From Escherichia coli (GTDB lineage Bacteria > Pseudomonadota > Gammaproteobacteria > Enterobacterales > Enterobacteriaceae): a stretch of 64,000 bases of DNA. Position numbers and translations under genes: made by a program. Where the stretch lies: NCBI RefSeq assembly GCF_965641715.1, contig NZ_OZ282455.1; one strand, written 5' to 3'. This document shows positions 4,200 through 64,000 of this stretch, piece after piece. The number at the start of each line of letters is the position of its first letter. Within the stretch, counting starts at the first letter, position 1. Below the pieces are notes generated by a model. The model searched no databases. It saw nothing but the letters and a program-made list of their open reading frames with translations, and was not told the origin of the DNA.

Positions 4200-4647
4200 T
4201 TTTACGCAGGGACACGCCGATCATGATCGTTTCATATCAGGGGTGGTCTGGAGGTCATGCGGCGTGTCCTCTGCACTCGCCGGAATAAGGAAGTCGCCGG
4301 CGGCTCCGCTTTTACCCGGCCATGCGGGGCATGGCCTTGTGGGTTTTCAGCTCTGTGGCCTCAGCGTCGTGTGCGGGCTGTGCCGTGCCTCCATCTTAGC
4401 CGGGCTGGCAGGGATGCAAGGGTACGCTTCGCCGCTGCGGTCACCCGGTCCCTCCTTCCCGTCTGCCGTGATTTTCCGGTCGTTCACCCGCTCAGATTTC
4501 GCGGTCTCACCCTCCAACTCCCGCCAGCCGTGTGCGTCAGGCTGCGGCTTCCCTTGCGCCCTGTGCATCCCCGCCTTATCGCCCGGCTTTTATGGAGGCA
4601 CGGCACCGCCCGGTGCCGCAGAACATGTGACTATGGAGGATTCGGGA
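4200..4647. promoter_or_regulatory. GC-rich structured leader upstream of ardA; candidate single-strand promoter region
   Basis: Roughly 450 bp of GC-rich sequence with no convincing coding signal (it only appears as an in-frame extension of the ardA ORF); inference from the known ssDNA-promoter arrangement upstream of leading-region genes. Confidence 0.3.
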
Positions 4648-5148
4648 ATGTCTGTTGTTGCACCTGCTGTATACGTTGGAACCTGGCACAAATACAACTG
4701 TGGAAGTATCGCCGGACGCTGGTTTGACCTGACCACGTTTGATGATGAGCGCGACTTTTTCGCCGCCTGCCGTGCTCTTCACCAGGATGAAGCCGATCCT
4801 GAACTGATGTTTCAGGATTATGAGGGATTCCCGGGGAATATGGCCTCTGAATGCCATATCAACTGGGCCTGGGTTGAAGGCTTCCGCCGGGCACGGGATG
4901 AAGGCTGCGAAGAGGCTTATCGTCTCTGGGTGGATGATACCGGTGAGACGGATTTTGACACCTTCCGCGATGCCTGGTGGGGCGAGGCTGACAGTGAGTA
5001 GGCTTTTGCGGTTGAGTTCGTCAGTGATACCGGCCTGCTGGCTGACGTGCCGGAGACGGTGGCGCTCTATTTTGACTATGAGGCGTATGCGCGGGATTTA
5101 TTCCTGGACTCCTTCACCTTTATTGACGGTCATGTGTTCCGTCGGTGA
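4648..5148 (+). pseudogene. ardA: antirestriction protein ArdA interrupted by an in-frame amber codon at codon 118 (4999-5001)
   Basis: [33 protein letters not shown]... matches remembered ArdA; ORF stops at TAG 4999-5001 but the same frame continues AFAVEFVSDTGLLADVPETVALYFDYEAYARDLFLDSFTFIDGHVFRR* to 5148, giving the 166-aa ArdA length if the TAG were CAG. Confidence 0.8.
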
Positions 5149-5496
5149 TTTACTCCCCCGCTCCGGCGGGGGTATGGCCTGCCAGGCCGCCGGAAAACCC
5201 TGGCAGGCTTACGCCTGCCTGAAATGCAGGAGGGCCGCGCCTGCGGCGCTGCCCTTCCTGCCCGTCATGGTGTGAGGCATTTTTCTGTTATGTCGTTTCT
5301 GTTGTTCTGATTTCCGGAGGCGGGGACACCTTCGGCTCCCGGCTGCCTGGCGGCATCCGGTCGTCAGGCCCGACTCCGACAGGCAGCTGCTGGCGCACCC
5401 GCCAGTCTCCGCCGAACCCGCTGGCGCGGTTTCGGGCTGCCGCTACGGTCCGATGTCTGAAAAACCAGGCTTGCAGCGACCGTTCCGGTCGCGCCG

Positions 5497-5860
5497 CCCC
5501 TGTCGCGCCGGAAACGGCGCTCCCTGCACACCTGACGGTGTGTAAGGCCACTGCGCCTGATGGCGCAGTCAACCCTTCCGCCGCCACCCCTGCGGCCTGT
5601 TTCCCGCTGTGGACTTTCCGGGGGCTGGAGTAACCACATCCCGTTTCAGCAGTCTAGGGGAAGATATACCGTCCACAAAATTTTTAGCCATAAACCCGGC
5701 AAAAAATTTTGCGTCCGCCCCCGGACAGCTGCCCCGTGACGTGGTGACGGACGCCCCATCGGAAAGGTCCACTGCGGGGAGAAACCCCGAAGAAGTGGAC
5801 GGCAGAAGGGGCTTTCGCCCCTCCGGGGAGCAACCGGTCGGCCCGGCGACCTGATTCAGC
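5497..5860 (+). repeat. Frpo-like structured repeat, copy 1 (candidate ssDNA promoter)
   Basis: About 360 bp highly similar to 8372-8725; contains inverted repeats CACACC..GGTGTG and CTGCGCC..GGCGCAG; sits directly upstream of an ORF start. Confidence 0.6.
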
Positions 5861-6338: not shown

Positions 6339-6404
6339 TCTCTCCGCCGGCGCTTCCCCGCCAGGAAGTCCGGCATCTCAATCACTATCTATGGAGATTA
6401 TGCC

Positions 6405-6671
6405 ATGAGACCATCAATTATCTTCGCAACCGCCGAGTATGTAAAGCGTCTGCGTGAAGAGTGCCTGCGGGAGAATAAACCCCTGCACCGCCATACCCGC
6501 TTCAGACGTCAGGAGCTGGCACAGGATGAGATTAACCCGGACGTCCTGGCGATGAGCGGCCATATCGCCAGACGCTGCAGTGAGCAGAAGCGGGTGCGTA
6601 TCCCCGCTATGAAAGTCAGCGAATGGGGCCACCTGCTCCGCGCGCTTGAAATTGAGCGGGTCTGCCACTGA
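6405..6671 (+). CDS. hypothetical protein (88 aa)
   Basis: ORF preceded by GGAGA; basic, no family recognised. Confidence 0.4.
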   Translation: MRPSIIFATAEYVKRLREECLRENKPLHRHTRFRRQELAQDEINPDVLAMSGHIARRCSEQKRVRIPAMKVSEWGHLLRALEIERVCH

Positions 6672-6735
6672 TTAACCCTTGCCGTCTGCCTGTGCAGGCG
6701 GCAGGATACGTTCAGACATCTCACCAGGAGGAACC

Positions 6736-7662
6736 GTGAGTAAGAAGAAAACCACCACGACGCCCACGCCGCATGATGCCGCGTTCCGGTCGTTCCTGGC
6801 GAATCCCGACGTCGCCAGAGATTTTCTGGAACTGCATCTTCCGGCGGAGTACCGGCAGTTGTGCGACCTGTCCACGCTGAAGCTGGAACCCGCCACCTTT
6901 GTTGAGCCGGACCTGCATCAGTACGCCAGCGATATCCTCTGGAGTGTGAAAACCACCGGGGGTGAAGATGGCTATGTTTATACGCTCATCGAGCACCAGA
7001 GCACCGAAAATCTGTACATGCCTTTCCGCATGTTACGTTACAGTGTGGCGGCGATGCAGAGACATCTGGAGCAGCACAAAACGTTGCCACTGGTCATTCC
7101 GGTGCTGTTCTATCACGGTGAGCGCAGCCCGTACCCGTACAGCATGAACTGGCTGGACTGTTTTGAGAATCCGGCGCTTGCGGCTAAAATATACACAAAG
7201 CCGTTTCCGCTGGTTGATATCACTGTCGTTGATGACAATGAAATCATGAACCATCGCCGGATGGCCGCACTGACGCTGCTGATGAAGCATATCCGCCATC
7301 GTGACATGATGGAGCTGCTGGACAAACTCCCGCAGGTCATGGTGGAAATTTCAGACGAGCAGGTGCGTGTTCTGATTCATTACATCGTTAACGCAGGGGA
7401 CTCTGTATCACCGGAATTTATGCGGGCGCTGGCTGAGCGTCTGCCGCAGCATGAGGATAAACTGATGACTATCGCAGAACGTCTTGAGCAAAAAGGTCGC
7501 CAGGAAGGCAGGATGGAAGGACGCATGGAAGGACGCATGGAAGGAGCGCTTGAAAAAGCCCTGGCTATTGCGTGCCAGCTTCAGAAAATGGGGATGACGC
7601 CGGAGCAGATTAAGCAGGCTACCGGACTTTCCGATGACGAACTGAAGAAAATCACTCACTGA
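6736..7662 (+). CDS. Rpn-family (YhgA-like, PD-(D/E)XK transposase_31) recombination-promoting nuclease
   Basis: HDAAFRSFL...LIEHQS...PLVIPVLFYHGE motif block typical of Rpn/YhgA-like proteins; GTG start after AGGAGG chosen; C-terminal tail carries GRMEG tandem repeat. Confidence 0.75.
   Translation: MSKKKTTTTPTPHDAAFRSFLANPDVARDFLELHLPAEYRQLCDLSTLKLEPATFVEPDLHQYASDILWSVKTTGGEDGYVYTLIEHQSTENLYMPFRMLRYSVAAMQRHLEQHKTLPLVIPVLFYHGERSPYPYSMNWLDCFENPALAAKIYTKPFPLVDITVVDDNEIMNHRRMAALTLLMKHIRHRDMMELLDKLPQVMVEISDEQVRVLIHYIVNAGDSVSPEFMRALAERLPQHEDKLMTIAERLEQKGRQEGRMEGRMEGRMEGALEKALAIACQLQKMGMTPEQIKQATGLSDDELKKITH
7495..7547 (+). repeat. 15-bp tandem repeat inside rpn encoding GRQEG-RMEG-RMEG-RMEG
   Basis: ggacgcatggaagga repeated in tandem; seen directly. 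Confidence 0.8.
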
Positions 7663-7671
7663 GTAAACATC

Positions 7672-7702
7672 ACAGCCCGGCAAAATGCCGGGCTTTTTTG
7701 TC
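7672..7702 (+). terminator. rho-independent terminator after rpn
   Basis: AGCCCGGC-AAAAT-GCCGGGCT hairpin followed by TTTTTTG. Confidence 0.75.
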
Positions 7703-7723
7703 AGCAGGAGCAGAGCAAACAGC

Positions 7724-7882
7724 ATGACGATTGCAGAACGTCTTATTCAAAAAGGCGCACTTGAAGTGGCGCGGGAAATAGCCTGCCGGCTGCGGGATAT
7801 GGGCTGGACGCCGGAACGGATTCAGGAGGCAACCGGACTTTCCGGTGAAGAACTGAAAAAGCTGTTTCCTGATGAGCAGTAG
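7724..7882 (+). CDS. standalone RpnS-like small protein (paralogue of the Rpn C-terminal tail)
   Basis: 52-aa product MTIAERLIQKG...TPERIQEATGLSGEELKK aligns with Rpn residues from the internal Met (MTIAERLEQKG...TPEQIKQATGLSDDELKK); DNA also visibly similar. Confidence 0.5.
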   Translation: MTIAERLIQKGALEVAREIACRLRDMGWTPERIQEATGLSGEELKKLFPDEQ

Positions 7883-7912: not shown

Positions 7913-8164
7913 TCACACATCCTCTGCCGTTTCCCCCAGTTCATTTTCCAGTCGCCTGATGATATCTGCCTTACGCATCCCCTGCATGTGAGGCAGCAGG
8001 TCACGGACTGAAAGTGCCTGGGTGGTCCTCCAGACGGTGACGTCCACCTGTTCCGCATTTTCCCAGGCGTGCCATGTTCTCTGCGTCACGCCAAATTCTC
8101 TGGCCGCTTTTTCGCGTGACCAGAGCATGCTTTTTCGCCAGATTCGCAGTTCCCAGCCGGTCAT
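7913..8164 (-). CDS. XRE-type helix-turn-helix transcriptional regulator
   Basis: 83-aa ORF with WSREKAAREFGVTQRTWHAWEN helix-turn-helix-like segment; one of only two leading-region protein genes on the minus strand. Confidence 0.55.
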   Translation of the reverse strand: MTGWELRIWRKSMLWSREKAAREFGVTQRTWHAWENAEQVDVTVWRTTQALSVRDLLPHMQGMRKADIIRRLENELGETAEDV

Positions 8165-8266: not shown

Positions 8267-8371
8267 TTTTGCTTGTAAATGTCGTGCGGTTTTCTCTGTT
8301 TTCACCTGTGCGGGAGTGGTGTGCCAGTGACCACCACATGCCATTGTTGTGCCGTCGTTTTTCTTCAGTCG

Positions 8372-8725
8372 CGCCGTATGCGGCGCTCCCTGCACACCTT
8401 ACGGTGTGTAAGGCCACTGCGCCTGATGGCGCAGCTGTCTCTGCCTGTCTGCCGCCGCACTGCGGCCTGTTCTCCGCAGACGGACTTTCCGGGGGTACAT
8501 ACATGACCACATCCCGTTTCAGTCGTCCAGGGGAGAGATGTACCAGCCACAAAACTTTTTGCCGCAGGCGTCAAAAACTTTTGCGTCTGCCCCCGGACAA
8601 CTGCCCCGTGACGTGGTGAGCGTCCCCCGTCGGAAAGGTCCACTGCGGGGAAATCCCCGAAGACCCGGACGGCAGAAGGAGCTTCGCTCCTCCGGGAAAT
8701 GACCTGGCTGACCCGGCAGTCGTGA
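8372..8725 (+). repeat. Frpo-like structured repeat, copy 2 (candidate ssDNA promoter)
   Basis: Paralogous to 5497-5860 including the GCGCTCCCTGCACACCT.ACGGTGTGTAAGGCCACTGCGCCTGATGGCGCAG core; ends just before an ORF start. Confidence 0.6.
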
Positions 8726-17907: not shown

Positions 17908-18140
17908 GACAAAGTCTCCATTTCTGGAATTTAAATCAAACGGAAAGGTTAAAAATTTATTTGCAGGCGATAAGAGCTAACCAGAGGAATTAGCCGTGCG
18001 ATAAAAGGATTGTTGCAGATACGAAAGTCGTTAGAATAGCTGCGGGCGCTTGAGGCTGTATGCCGAAAGCGTTTTGTGGACGGTATACAGCAGAAAGCCC
18101 CTGGAGATTTTTTTATCAATCAACCAAGGGCTCTACTGTA

Positions 18141-18344
18141 ATGCCTAGACAACATTATAGTAGCCCGATAACCGCCGTAAGGCAATGGAGGGGCTATGAT
18201 GCCACAGCGAACGTTTTTAATGATGTTAATCGTCATCTGTGTGACGATTCTGTGTTTTGTCTGGATGGTGAGGGATTCGCTTTGCGTACTCCGGCTCCAG
18301 CAGGGAAACACAGTGCTTGTGGCAACGTTAGCCTACGAAGTTAA
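18141..18344 (+). CDS. pndC: PndC (mok-type overlapping reading frame)
   Basis: Reading frame overlapping pndA and ending inside it, as in hok/mok and pndA/pndC. Confidence 0.45.
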   Translation: MPRQHYSSPITAVRQWRGYDATANVFNDVNRHLCDDSVFCLDGEGFALRTPAPAGKHSACGNVSLRS

Positions 18345-18674: not shown

Positions 18675-18828
18675 CGGATTTTCTCTCTGTATTTATGGGT
18701 AGTTATCGAACTGAATGTGCCAGTTTTTTCAGGAGACGGCAAAGTTGAGATGATTGGTTCTGATTCAGAGCATGAGTTTCCTCGGTGTGACGGGCATGTC
18801 GGGCGGATTTTGAGAAACAACAGATGTA

Positions 18829-18860
18829 AAAAAACCGACTGGTGAGGTCGGTTTTTTTAC
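18829..18860. terminator. bidirectional rho-independent terminator
   Basis: A7-ACCGACTGGTGAGGTCGGT-T7: hairpin flanked by A-run and T-run. Confidence 0.7.
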
Positions 18861-18890
18861 TGTTCCGTTACAGAGTGGGTGGCCCTGACC

Positions 18891-18914
18891 GGAGGAAATC
18901 TCTTTTCAACTAAC
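18891..18914 (+). repeat. direct repeat copy 1 (GGAGGAAATCTCTTTTCAACTAAC)
   Basis: 24-bp element repeated at 19078-19101 with one mismatch. Confidence 0.7.
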
Positions 18915-62913: not shown

Positions 62914-63230
62914 CTAAAAACGCTATCACCGAGTTCCTACGCTCATTGGTGATAGCCCAGACGGGGGTAGGAATACCGGCGTCATCGGAAACCGGCCAGG
63001 CTAATGCCTGCCCCGCCTGAGCTACCATAGATGACGACAAGAAATACAAGTTCCTGTCTTTATGGTATGGCAAAAAACGACGCCAAATGAAGAAATTAAC
63101 TTCTGCGCCGACGATGACTACGCGGGTTCCTACGCCCGATCACAGTTTTGCCTGTGACCAGTAAAGGGTACTTAGTATAACGCACCGAGTCAACTAACAG
63201 CTTAAAAAACATACAAAAAAGCGTCAAAAC

Positions 63231-63600: not shown

Positions 63601-63892
63601 CAGAAAAATCTGCTTTTAAAAATAGATTTTATTTTTTTGACGCAGGTCAAGATTAACTTATTAGAGGTATCAGTGAGGAGGCACTGGAAGAGAAGAGATC
63701 GTTGTAATGCTTTTCAAATTAACGTAAAGCGGGTATATTTCGGCTGTTATTAGCTGTGCAGAGGGTGGCACTCTGTGGAGCAAAGCGGCGAAAGCCGGAC
63801 GGCAGAATGCGCCATAAGGCATTCAGGAGAGATGGCATGTACGGACAGTAAGTCAGAAGACTGAAGATGTTCCGGAAGCCATAAAAGGAAAA

Positions 63893-63943
63893 CCCCCACT
63901 ATCTTTCTTACGAACTTGGCGGAACGACGAAAGATAGTGGGGG
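63893..63943. promoter_or_regulatory. IncI-type replication-control stem-loop (target/antisense Inc RNA region); rep genes lie beyond the window
   Basis: Perfect 15-bp stem CCCCCACTATCTTTC / GAAAGATAGTGGGGG with a loop containing TTGGCG, the loop hexanucleotide I recall for IncI/IncB copy-number control RNAs. Confidence 0.45.
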
Positions 63944-64000
63944 CCTCACAGAATACGGGTAAAGTATAATGAAACCGTACCAGAGATTCAACCCTGTGCA

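Follow-up and report, generated by a model that had tools for sequence, protein, structure and literature searches.

An rpnP2-type toxin-antitoxin and phage-defence locus with a separate RpnS paralogue in the leading region of an I-complex conjugative plasmid of Escherichia coli

For the plasmid-encoded Rpn protein RpnP2, Zhong et al. 2023 (PNAS 120:e2307382120) showed that RpnP2-L is toxic, that the shorter RpnP2-S, made from an internal start of the same gene, acts as its antitoxin, and that together the two give defence against T-even phages. Separate downstream genes termed RpnSs, such as ypaA, were described in the same study, as were internal transcription start sites for all five chromosomal rpn genes of E. 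coli K-12. DNA endonuclease activity, and toxicity or SOS induction when RpnS is missing, have been published for RpnA, RpnB and the ECOR13 allele of RpnP2. According to a published rule, the 4-aa repeats of RpnS begin 8-20 residues past its initiating methionine. Orphan antitoxins have been reported as enriched in the leading regions of plasmids (Samuel et al. 2024, Nature 635:186). Rpn has no occurrence in that paper, and a literature search found no paper linking Rpn or ygdB with the leading region.

The window analysed here is a stretch of 64,000 nucleotides of E. coli contig NZ_OZ282455.1. Positions 6736-7882 of the window are an rpnP2-type Rpn toxin-antitoxin/phage-defence locus (ygdB) of the I-complex conjugative plasmids, which is already known and not new. 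Window positions 6436-6834, comprising the promoter and the N-terminal region, were identical in 397 of 399 nt to the synthetic RpnP2 gBlock AO591, and this gBlock matched the relative L012 in 399 of 399 nt. Identity with gBlock AO730 was 386 of 398 nt, engineered changes included. ECOR13 RpnP2-LS (Zhong et al. 2023) represents the same gene and plasmid locus, with 99.5% identity over 300 bp of upstream sequence plus the initial 100 bp of the gene. The gene order ardA-ygcA-ygdA-rpn-small ORF-ygeA-ygfB-yggA-nikA is also the same as in the rpnP2 locus group. The toxin/antitoxin and defence reading proposed in the earlier note is correct, and is not new, because published experiments demonstrated it for another allele of the same gene, RpnP2.

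The toxin gene rpnL (ygdB; rpnP2 allele) is located on the plus strand at 6736..7662 and encodes a 308-aa Rpn-family PD-(D/E)XK DNA endonuclease, as assigned from Pfam, TIGRFAM and gBlock identity. The gene starts with GTG at 6736, with AGGAGG (6726-6731) ahead of it, and ends with a stop codon at 7660-7662; the database record annotates the same interval as ygdB / Rpn family. Profile searches against Rpn/YhgA models placed RpnL above the family cutoff, with a Pfam PF04754 match over residues 11-207 (E 2.3e-78) and a TIGR01784 score of 180.4 bits (cutoff 52.1). The catalytic span (6775..6999, plus strand) contains D14 (6775-6777) in the motif PHD, D66 (6931-6933) in SDI, and E86 (6991-6993) and Q88 (6997-6999) in IEHQ, all four intact. 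These results bear out the Rpn/YhgA PD-(D/E)XK call made earlier from the letters alone. The published active-site mutant gBlock AO730 alters the same four positions (PHD>PHA, SDI>SAI, IEHQ>IAHK).

Legacy family names, 'Putative transposase, YhgA-like' in Pfam and 'ISNCY family transposase' in NCBIfam, would imply that this ORF encodes a transposase, as in the Transposase_31 / ISNCY annotation, and that a mobile element occupies the region. However, the NCBIfam equivalog models gave 339 and 321 bits, far under the cutoff of 583, the published analysis found undefined, variable ends without terminal inverted repeats or target duplications, and in about 2000 PLSDB plasmids the gene is found at one constant place in the backbone. 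The transposase reading was rejected on these grounds and is extremely improbable. The module is hosted mostly by resistance-carrying plasmids of the IncI/K/Z types, and 25% of complete E. coli genomes possess it. PADLOC-DB v2 (2023) matched neither Rpn nor RpnSs nor any neighbouring gene beyond noise, and NCBIfam assigned no family to ygcA, ygdA, ygeA, ygfB and yggA. A PDB sequence search with full-length Rpn left the nuclease domain unmatched, and its tail matches were repeat-protein noise only.

Similar to ECOR13 RpnP2-LS, the window harbours a nested in-frame gene, rpnS (7465..7662, plus strand), which corresponds to the RpnL C-terminal domain from Met244 and encodes 65 aa, by analogy a predicted antitoxin. 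The claim of an internal ATG near 7465 preceded by GAGGA, with a 65-aa product, proved accurate: the codon is 7465-7467, and the Shine-Dalgarno GAGGA (7453..7457, plus strand) lies 7 nt upstream. All 14 of 14 loci sampled, which represent three tail types, retained the GAGGA-N7-ATG arrangement, while flanking codons vary synonymously (CAT/CAC, GAT/GAC). The published RpnP2-L* start-site mutant (AO714) changes exactly this GAGGA and the ATG at 7465. Met244 is also the residue number of the mapped RpnA-S start, and RpnS aligns with the RpnA model at 244-291/292 and with TIGR01784 at 219-273. The paralogue RpnA shares the PD-(D/E)XK N-terminal domain, and yet the RpnA equivalog model is the one that gave RpnL 321 bits; K-12 RpnA-S also differs in lacking both the repeats and a downstream Ss gene. 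Within rpnL, a consensus scan detected a candidate internal sigma-70-like promoter at 7163..7190 on the plus strand (TTGAGA-16-TAAAAT, 10/12 matches), which is a possible source of a short rpnS transcript.

Helix 1 of RpnS carries a hypervariable array (7495..7542, plus strand) of four 12-nt / 4-aa units, GRQE GRME GRME GRME. The 15-bp repeat read as GRMEG x3 in the earlier note has to be corrected accordingly, since TRF gave a period of 12 with 2.8 exact copies at 7513-7545. A 4-residue period is typical for the Rpn family. The array begins at RpnS residue 11, which fits the published rule, and comprises 2-7 units in relatives.

The C-terminal third of the gene differs from the published allele. 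Identity between the window and L012 was at least 98% at 6400-7299, 52-72% at 7300-7699, and 96-99% from 7800. The RpnL tail occurs in three swapped types, and the one in the window is type 1. ECOR13 RpnP2-LS and the window have the nuclease domain at the N-terminus in common, as well as the catalytic residues, GAGGA-N7-ATG, and a downstream hairpin followed by rpnSs, whereas they carry distinct allelic cassettes in the C-terminal third, with GRQE/GRME repeats in the window (type 1) and GIQQ/GVQQ repeats in ECOR13 (type 3). Since all catalytic residues are kept, and the start at Met244 as well, we infer that the allele in the window works as the published one.

Downstream of rpnL, an intrinsic-terminator-like hairpin is present at 7674..7700 on the plus strand, with a 9-bp stem at 7674-7694 (7 G-C) followed by T6. 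It was detected in a terminator scan and has a dG of -17.5 kcal/mol, in agreement with the strong terminator described before. The hairpin was kept in all sampled loci, although some alleles have no more than T4. It occupies part of the 61 nt spacer between the rpn stop and the ATG of the standalone gene rpnSs (7724..7882, plus strand; stop 7880-7882), a 52-aa paralogue of RpnS whose allele in the window has zero 4-aa repeats, where the ECOR13-like L012 has one. BLASTP aligned the tail with the small ORF at an E of 3e-17, with 33 identical residues and, precisely at the repeats, a gap of 16 residues, so that the description of this ORF as a diverged, repeat-free copy of the tail stands. At the DNA level, a 109-nt direct repeat (7541-7649 / 7752-7860) is 75% identical. 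Excluding repeats, the rpnSs protein is 67% identical to the adjacent RpnS; its identities to the three plasmid tail types are 67/49/53%, and those to YpaA and RpnE-S 43% and 38%. By these identities, rpnSs sides with RpnS from the rpn lineage it belongs to and not with other RpnSs.

The RpnS-like nature of the standalone gene is also supported by structure. A profile built from tails and Ss proteins matched the RpnA-S crystal chain 7TH0 over its full length (E 5e-9). The AF2 model of rpnSs is a three-helix bundle (pLDDT 78; helices 3-25, 30-37, 41-47), and its top PDB match was again RpnA-S 7TH0 (prob 1.00, TM 0.78/0.87, rmsd 1.0 A), at 48% sequence identity. Up to an E of 10, Pfam PF14261 (DUF4351) matched neither full-length RpnL nor an RpnSs variant of 68 aa, and Pfam gave the 68-aa variant only a weak Yae1_N (GX3 repeat) match. 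Many RpnSs proteins carry the precomputed PF27070.1 instead of PF14261. RpnS function is not defined by a PF14261 match. Matches of the small protein to DotG/IcmE, PPR and designed-repeat proteins reflect low-complexity helical repeats and were rejected as homology.

Small same-strand genes just downstream are also known from rpnE-ypaA (rpnE-Ss) of K-12 and from rpnC-Ss, where they are homologous to the internal RpnS, start with MTIAERL and differ from their neighbour in 4-aa repeat number; fusion and loss variants are known there as well. However, the duplication in rpnE-ypaA takes in the Shine-Dalgarno sequence (AAAAGGAGAGATTAATG), the gap is 12 nt without a hairpin, and the copies are 82% identical. 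In the window, the spacer contains the conserved hairpin, the duplication starts at the ATG, the copies are 67% identical, and rpnSs has its own GFxx repeat family. The rpnSs and YpaA proteins are just 43% identical and therefore have independent origins.

The hairpin ends only 29 nt before ATG 7724, and a promoter scan between the two found no promoter-like site. The proposal that the small gene is independently transcribed was therefore dropped. The nearest Shine-Dalgarno to the ATG is AGGAG at 7706-7710, at a spacing of 13 nt. With a good terminator upstream and this spacing, expression of rpnSs appears doubtful, the terminator in particular pointing to a low level; rpnSs would probably be translated at a low level via read-through of the hairpin.

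These features could make the small ORF a non-functional relic of tail duplication or cassette exchange, untranslated and carried as a passenger of the backbone. The K-12 analogue ypaA is flagged as a pseudogene by RefSeq, the small gene was dispensable in published assays, and it is occasionally lost through fusion or IS66 insertion. Nevertheless, rpnSs was intact in 13 of 13 sampled loci carrying the separate gene, even in one with a frameshifted rpnL, and its Shine-Dalgarno and ATG were conserved among the sampled loci. The length variants of 52/56/60/64/68/72 aa arise via GFxx units (0-5) and are all in frame. The separate-gene arrangement was found in 57 of 60 spread-sampled plasmid matches, with one fusion and one loss to IS66, and YpaA is translated in K-12 according to published data. 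In a comparison of 11 haplotypes of this 52-codon gene, carried by plasmids that recombine, the rpnSs core has a pN/pS of 0.22, compared with 0.07-0.15 in neighbouring genes, and synonymous changes are in significant excess (12/24 sites, binomial P 0.007). Judged by this pattern of substitutions, rpnSs is under purifying selection, and a mere relic seems unlikely.

The small gene could alternatively be a second dedicated antitoxin of the adjacent RpnL, supplementing the internal RpnS. It has the same fold as the neighbouring RpnS, lies directly downstream of rpnL on the same strand, is kept in nearly all plasmids, and its K-12 analogue YpaA was published as a detectable protein. However, the published RpnP2-LS construct stops at ...CTTATACAGAAAGGTTTCGACG, within codon 14 of rpnSs, yet it is non-toxic and protective; rpnSs is therefore not the required antitoxin, and the idea of the small gene as a needed antidote is not supported. 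The ECOR13 deletion leaves rpnSs in place. The rpnSs core is constant while the RpnL tail alternates among three types (49-67% identity), and the GFxx number (0-5) tracks neither the RpnL repeat number (2-7) nor the tail type; repeat numbers of RpnL and rpnSs were equal in only one of 12 sampled pairs. In published experiments, neutralisation of RpnC was abolished by a one-repeat mismatch, and RpnB-L was not blocked by RpnA-S. A dedicated second antitoxin is thus rather improbable. Given the 67% identity, the zero versus four repeats and the dispensability in the published construct, rpnSs most likely does not serve the adjacent toxin as its working antidote, and most likely does not neutralise the neighbouring RpnL, as extrapolated from the specificity data on RpnA, RpnB and RpnC. 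Pairing of rpnSs with itself or with Rpn alleles having an Ss-type tail is more likely than with the adjacent toxin.

The module is located about 2.5 kb from oriT, with rpnSs at about 2.2 kb, and is flanked by two Frpo-like repeats. The upstream Frpo/ssi-like structured element (5502..5756) and the downstream copy of the same element type (8368..8628) are outside the module and form part of the leading-region context. They share direct repeats at 5502-5568 / 8368-8434 (94%) and 5697-5756 / 8569-8628 (87%), and the minus strand of 5440-5800 folds as ssDNA (z -7.6). The rpnSs gene is on the ardA/psiB strand with an Frpo-like element upstream. The locus resembles the leading-region orphan antitoxins and toxin-antitoxin genes of Samuel et al. 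2024 in being among the first few kb to reach the recipient, in sharing its strand with ardA/psiB/ssb, and in adjoining ssDNA-promoter-like elements.

This position, about 2.2 kb from oriT, would suit an early-expressed orphan antitoxin or anti-defence factor acting during establishment against Ss-tailed Rpn toxins in recipients or on competing I-complex plasmids. Orphan antitoxins are reportedly enriched in leading regions, Rpn alleles with an Ss-type tail exist (L014 and H91), and rpnSs is conserved independently of its neighbour's tail. On the other side, fusion alleles are a rarity, present in at most 29 of about 2000 records, and an exhaustive search of 1.8 billion cluster representatives with RpnSs yielded 41 matches, mostly short proteins or fragments, none of them a full-length Rpn whose tail is closely related. 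Variable repeat number would also restrict cross-reactivity. Chromosomal Rpn toxins were rejected as targets, identity being just 38-48% (48% to RpnA-S and 38-43% to RpnE-S/YpaA). An orphan antitoxin of this kind is quite improbable. Similarly, there is only a slight chance that rpnSs is a separately selected leading-region factor in the wider sense, that is, either such an orphan antitoxin or immunity factor, or a silent tail cassette for a specificity switch at the MTIAERL box.

As a whole, the locus is with high probability best explained as an RpnP2-type toxin-antitoxin and defence locus with an internal RpnS antitoxin, in which rpnSs is a paralogue of the RpnSs class and not the cognate antidote. 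As published for another allele, RpnL would be a PD-(D/E)XK DNA endonuclease, toxic alone, and RpnS would be translated in frame from ATG 7465 with the Shine-Dalgarno GAGGA. RpnS is predicted to form a three-helix bundle whose long first helix would pair with the identical C-terminal domain of RpnL, leaving the nuclease inactive. Partner specificity would be set by the 4-aa repeat number in helix 1, and the specificity segment of this allele, with GRME repeats x4 and tail type 1, would differ from that of the published one. The RpnL/RpnS pair would lower the plaquing of T-even phages. The rpnSs gene was probably left behind at an exchange of the rpn C-terminal cassette, with recombination at the conserved ATGACnATnGCAGAACGTCTT (MTIAERL) box, an origin suggested by the identity profile and one fusion allele.

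In annotations the locus still commonly appears as a 'putative transposase' and a 'hypothetical protein', which its recognition as RpnP2 corrects. The locus is no new kind of system, and the follow-ups are modest. The arrangement raises the questions of why a second small protein is retained, why the toxin tail is swapped and the small gene is not, and whether the position near oriT and between ssDNA-promoter-like elements leads to expression at plasmid entry. If rpnSs were indeed a separate leading-region factor, a phage-defence toxin-antitoxin system would be tied to plasmid establishment or to conflict between plasmids.

The open reading frame at 6736-7662 (+ strand, 308 codons, GTG start after AGGAGG), rpnL, encodes a protein matching Pfam PF04754 over residues 11-207 (E 2.3e-78) and, at 180 bits where the cutoff is 52, NCBIfam TIGR01784 ([quoted passage not shown]). 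This profile search bears out the earlier note's assignment to the Rpn family. Scores for the RpnA and "ISNCY" equivalog models of NCBIfam were far under the respective cutoffs, so the protein is a distinct Rpn/YhgA paralogue. The catalytic positions D14, D66, E86, and Q88 are all intact. An in-frame ATG at 7465 (Met244, + strand), with GAGGA 7 nt upstream, is present as the note had proposed and would yield a 65-aa tail protein, RpnS. The tail contains the array GRQE GRME GRME GRME (7495-7542, + strand), whose period is 12 nt or four residues according to TRF, and not 15 bp (GRMEG x3) as previously read.

Rpn proteins have been described as toxin-antitoxin phage-defence systems organised as genes within genes (Zhong et al. 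2023, PMC10400941). According to that study, the toxin is full-length RpnL, a DNA endonuclease; RpnS, produced from an internal start where the variable C-terminal domain begins, binds RpnL and inhibits it. In its crystal structure, RpnA-S is a dimeric three-helix bundle; the number of 4-aa repeats in helix 1 differs between strains and determines partner specificity, and in RpnC one additional repeat abolishes neutralisation. Separate downstream copies on chromosomes and plasmids, such as ypaA after rpnE, were named RpnSs and can be lost via deletion or fusion. The defence experiments used "plasmid-encoded RpnP2" of strain ECOR13. The synthetic RpnP2 fragment AO591 ("300 bp upstream and 101 downstream"), taken from the oligonucleotide table of the preprint and compared over 399 nt, is identical to window 6436-6834 at 397/399 positions and to the ECOR13-like relative L012 at 399/399. 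The published active-site mutant AO730 (PHD>PHA, SDI>SAI, IEHQ>IAHK) alters the positions corresponding to D14, D66, E86, and Q88, and the RpnP2-L* mutant AO714 (...CAGCACtctgacaccattttaACA...) destroys exactly the GAGGA and ATG singled out in the note. By this identity and the mapped mutations, the window gene is an allele of the experimentally characterised RpnP2 gene, and its internal start is the one validated in RpnP2. The proposed toxin/antitoxin-like defence module is thereby one that published work has shown in another allele.

Among fourteen sampled loci, the window included, the RpnL C-terminus is of three types, each with 2-7 repeat units. The window type has GRQE/GRME repeats, then ...GALEKALAIACQLQKMGMTPEQIKQATGLSDDELKKITH; the second has GIQK/GIQQ repeats, then ...GRMEEKQDIARQLQKTGM...; and the third, that of ECOR13, has GIQQ/GVQQ repeats, then ...GALQKAREIARELRNAGM.... 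GAGGA-N7-ATG is preserved in all three, synonymous differences nearby notwithstanding. The identity between the window and L012 is at least 98% over 6400-7299, 52-72% over 7300-7699, and 96-99% from 7800. The last third of rpnL, rpnS included, thus behaves like a cassette that can be exchanged while the surrounding backbone stays conserved. In locus L013 (NZ_LT985280.1, ~1290-1450), where rpn is unannotated, a frameshift within the GIQQ array yields GIQRYPAGYPAGYPAG... and ruins both the RpnL and RpnS tails.

Beyond the rpnL stop, a G+C-rich 9-bp hairpin with a T6 run (7674-7700; terminator scan, dG -17.5 kcal/mol) precedes rpnSs, a separate ORF of 52 codons (7724-7882, + strand), which agrees with the terminator and diverged tail copy described in the note. 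The 52-aa product aligns to the 65-aa tail (E 3e-17) with a sole gap of 16 residues at the repeat array, and at the DNA level 7541-7649 and 7752-7860 form a direct repeat with 75% identity. The hairpin lies in a conserved spacer of 60-62 nt, and the duplication starts at the ATG, whereas in rpnE-ypaA of K-12 the Shine-Dalgarno (SD) sequence lies within the duplication, the gap is 12 nt, and there is no hairpin. Independent transcription of the small gene, also proposed, is not supported: the gap from hairpin to ATG is just 29 nt long, a scan of it found no promoter-like site, and the closest SD (AGGAG) precedes the ATG by 13 nt. PGAP often places the start at ATG 7685 (65-aa form, 7685-7882), within the hairpin loop, and in other alleles the annotated start overlaps the rpn stop. 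The start to which homology with the validated internal ATG points is 7724. Newer RefSeq records call the gene "RpnC/YadD family protein", and many RpnSs proteins bear the precomputed Pfam family PF27070.1.

A profile of tails and small proteins matches RpnA-S chain 7TH0 end to end (E 5e-9). The AF2 model of the 52-aa protein has three helices (pLDDT 78), and its best PDB match is likewise 7TH0 (TM 0.78/0.87, rmsd 1.0 A, 48% identity), and the product is an RpnS-class protein. RpnSs is closest to the window-type plasmid tail (67% identity), with 49-53% to the other two types and only 38-43% to RpnE-S and YpaA of K-12. Its origin therefore lies within the plasmid lineage, parallel to the published finding for RpnC-Ss and RpnE-Ss. 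Database homologues have 52, 56, 60, 64, or 68 aa, and the form in sampled locus L006 has 72 aa. These steps correspond to 0-5 units of its own repeat (GFDE/GFKE/GFKQ...), unlike that of RpnL; no such unit occurs in the window allele. As a (G-x-x-x)n helix, the hypervariable array of repeat-bearing variants (e.g. locus L003, 3411-3617) weakly matches Pfam Yae1_N (deca-GX3 motif, E 3e-4). In the sampled loci, RpnSs is nearly invariant outside the repeats regardless of the upstream tail type, and repeat numbers of RpnSs and RpnL agree in only one out of twelve pairs.

In the published work, the RpnP2-LS construct was non-toxic and protected against T-even phages (Zhong et al.). This construct ends (...CTTATACAGAAAGGTTTCGACG) inside codon 14 of rpnSs, and the ECOR13 deletion takes out rpn while hairpin and small gene stay in place. 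It is unlikely that the 52-aa protein acts as a working antidote of the adjacent RpnL, because the truncated construct works, repeat numbers do not covary, neutralisation is published as sensitive to a single repeat mismatch, the repeats are zero versus four, and the identity is 67%.

The RpnSs core shows purifying selection, with pN/pS of 0.22 and synonymous changes at 12/24 segregating sites versus 25% expected (P 0.007); the Rpn N-domain, ygdA, and ygeA have 0.07, 0.15, and 0.14. The gene is intact in every sampled locus having it, including L013. Of sixty spread-sampled matches to a fusion-junction probe, fifty-seven have the two-gene arrangement, one (L014-like) has the Rpn N-domain fused to an Ss tail, one lost the small gene to IS66, and one is partial. 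Such a rare natural loss is seen in L017 (NZ_CP104082.1, IncK2/Z plasmid), where an IS66-family element (1756-2808) lies directly 3' of rpn and the rpnSs region gives no match any more. That rpnSs is a relic fits in part: the upstream terminator and poor SD spacing agree with it, but the selection signal and near-universal retention do not.

The region is 100% identical to the IncI-gamma/K1 plasmid pRKI3099a and occurs in 2038 PLSDB records, nearly all of them conjugative MOBP/MPF_I plasmids from E. coli, Salmonella, and Shigella; it is also present in 1378 of the 5426 complete E. coli genomes. In records with R64-style names rpn is ygdB, and the gene order is psiB-psiA-ardA-ygcA-ygdA-ygdB-small ORF-(ygeA, opposite strand)-ygfB-(yggA)-nikA-nikB. 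As nikA starts at ~10247, the rpn 3' end is ~2.5 kb from oriT, nearer than ardA (4501-5001), and rpn shares the strand of ardA and psiB. Two G+C-rich, strongly structured Frpo/ssi-like elements in direct repeat (5502-5756 and 8368-8628), ~2.87 kb apart, flank the ygcA-ygdA-rpn-rpnSs-ygeA block; 5502-5568 and 8368-8434 are 94% identical, 5697-5756 and 8569-8628 87%. The - strand of 5440-5800, spanning the upstream copy, folds as ssDNA (z -7.6), and both elements probably serve the leading region as ssDNA promoters. The oriT proximity, the strand, and these flanks show that the leading-region placement made in the note is thus correct. The highly conserved ygeA (7913-8164, - strand) encodes a helix-turn-helix protein of 83 aa and converges on rpnSs, the two stop codons lying ~30 nt apart; it is retained even in the fusion allele and might regulate the rpn block. 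Some relatives possess an extra ORF absent from the window between ygdA and rpn (L003 2049-2438, L014 647-1036), which encodes a 129-aa acidic, Cys-rich protein (WP_000833767) and overlaps the rpn start codon by 4 nt. Rfam gathering-level matches to sok antitoxin RNA (18044-18201, +), AgrB antisense RNA (18826-18913, -), C4 antisense RNA (62945-63032, -), and the repZ regulatory pseudoknot (63885-64000, +, truncated at the window end) fit the backbone of an I-complex plasmid.

The leading-region location agrees with rpnSs being an anti-defence or immunity factor, and orphan antitoxins are reported to be enriched in leading regions. Little else is in favour of this reading: Ss-tailed Rpn alleles are rare, and among 1.8 billion representatives, searched exhaustively, there were only forty-one matches, mostly short proteins or fragments, with no full-length Rpn carrying a closely related tail.

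The module is real and was correctly interpreted from raw sequence; it is also already published, as the RpnP2 toxin-antitoxin/defence gene with the known downstream RpnSs class. A literature search found no account of where the RpnP2 locus lies in the leading region, flanked by Frpo-like elements, of a three-way mosaic of tails alongside a conserved rpnSs, or of plasmid rpnSs function. The leading-region position, the tail mosaicism, and the role of rpnSs are follow-up questions of modest interest.
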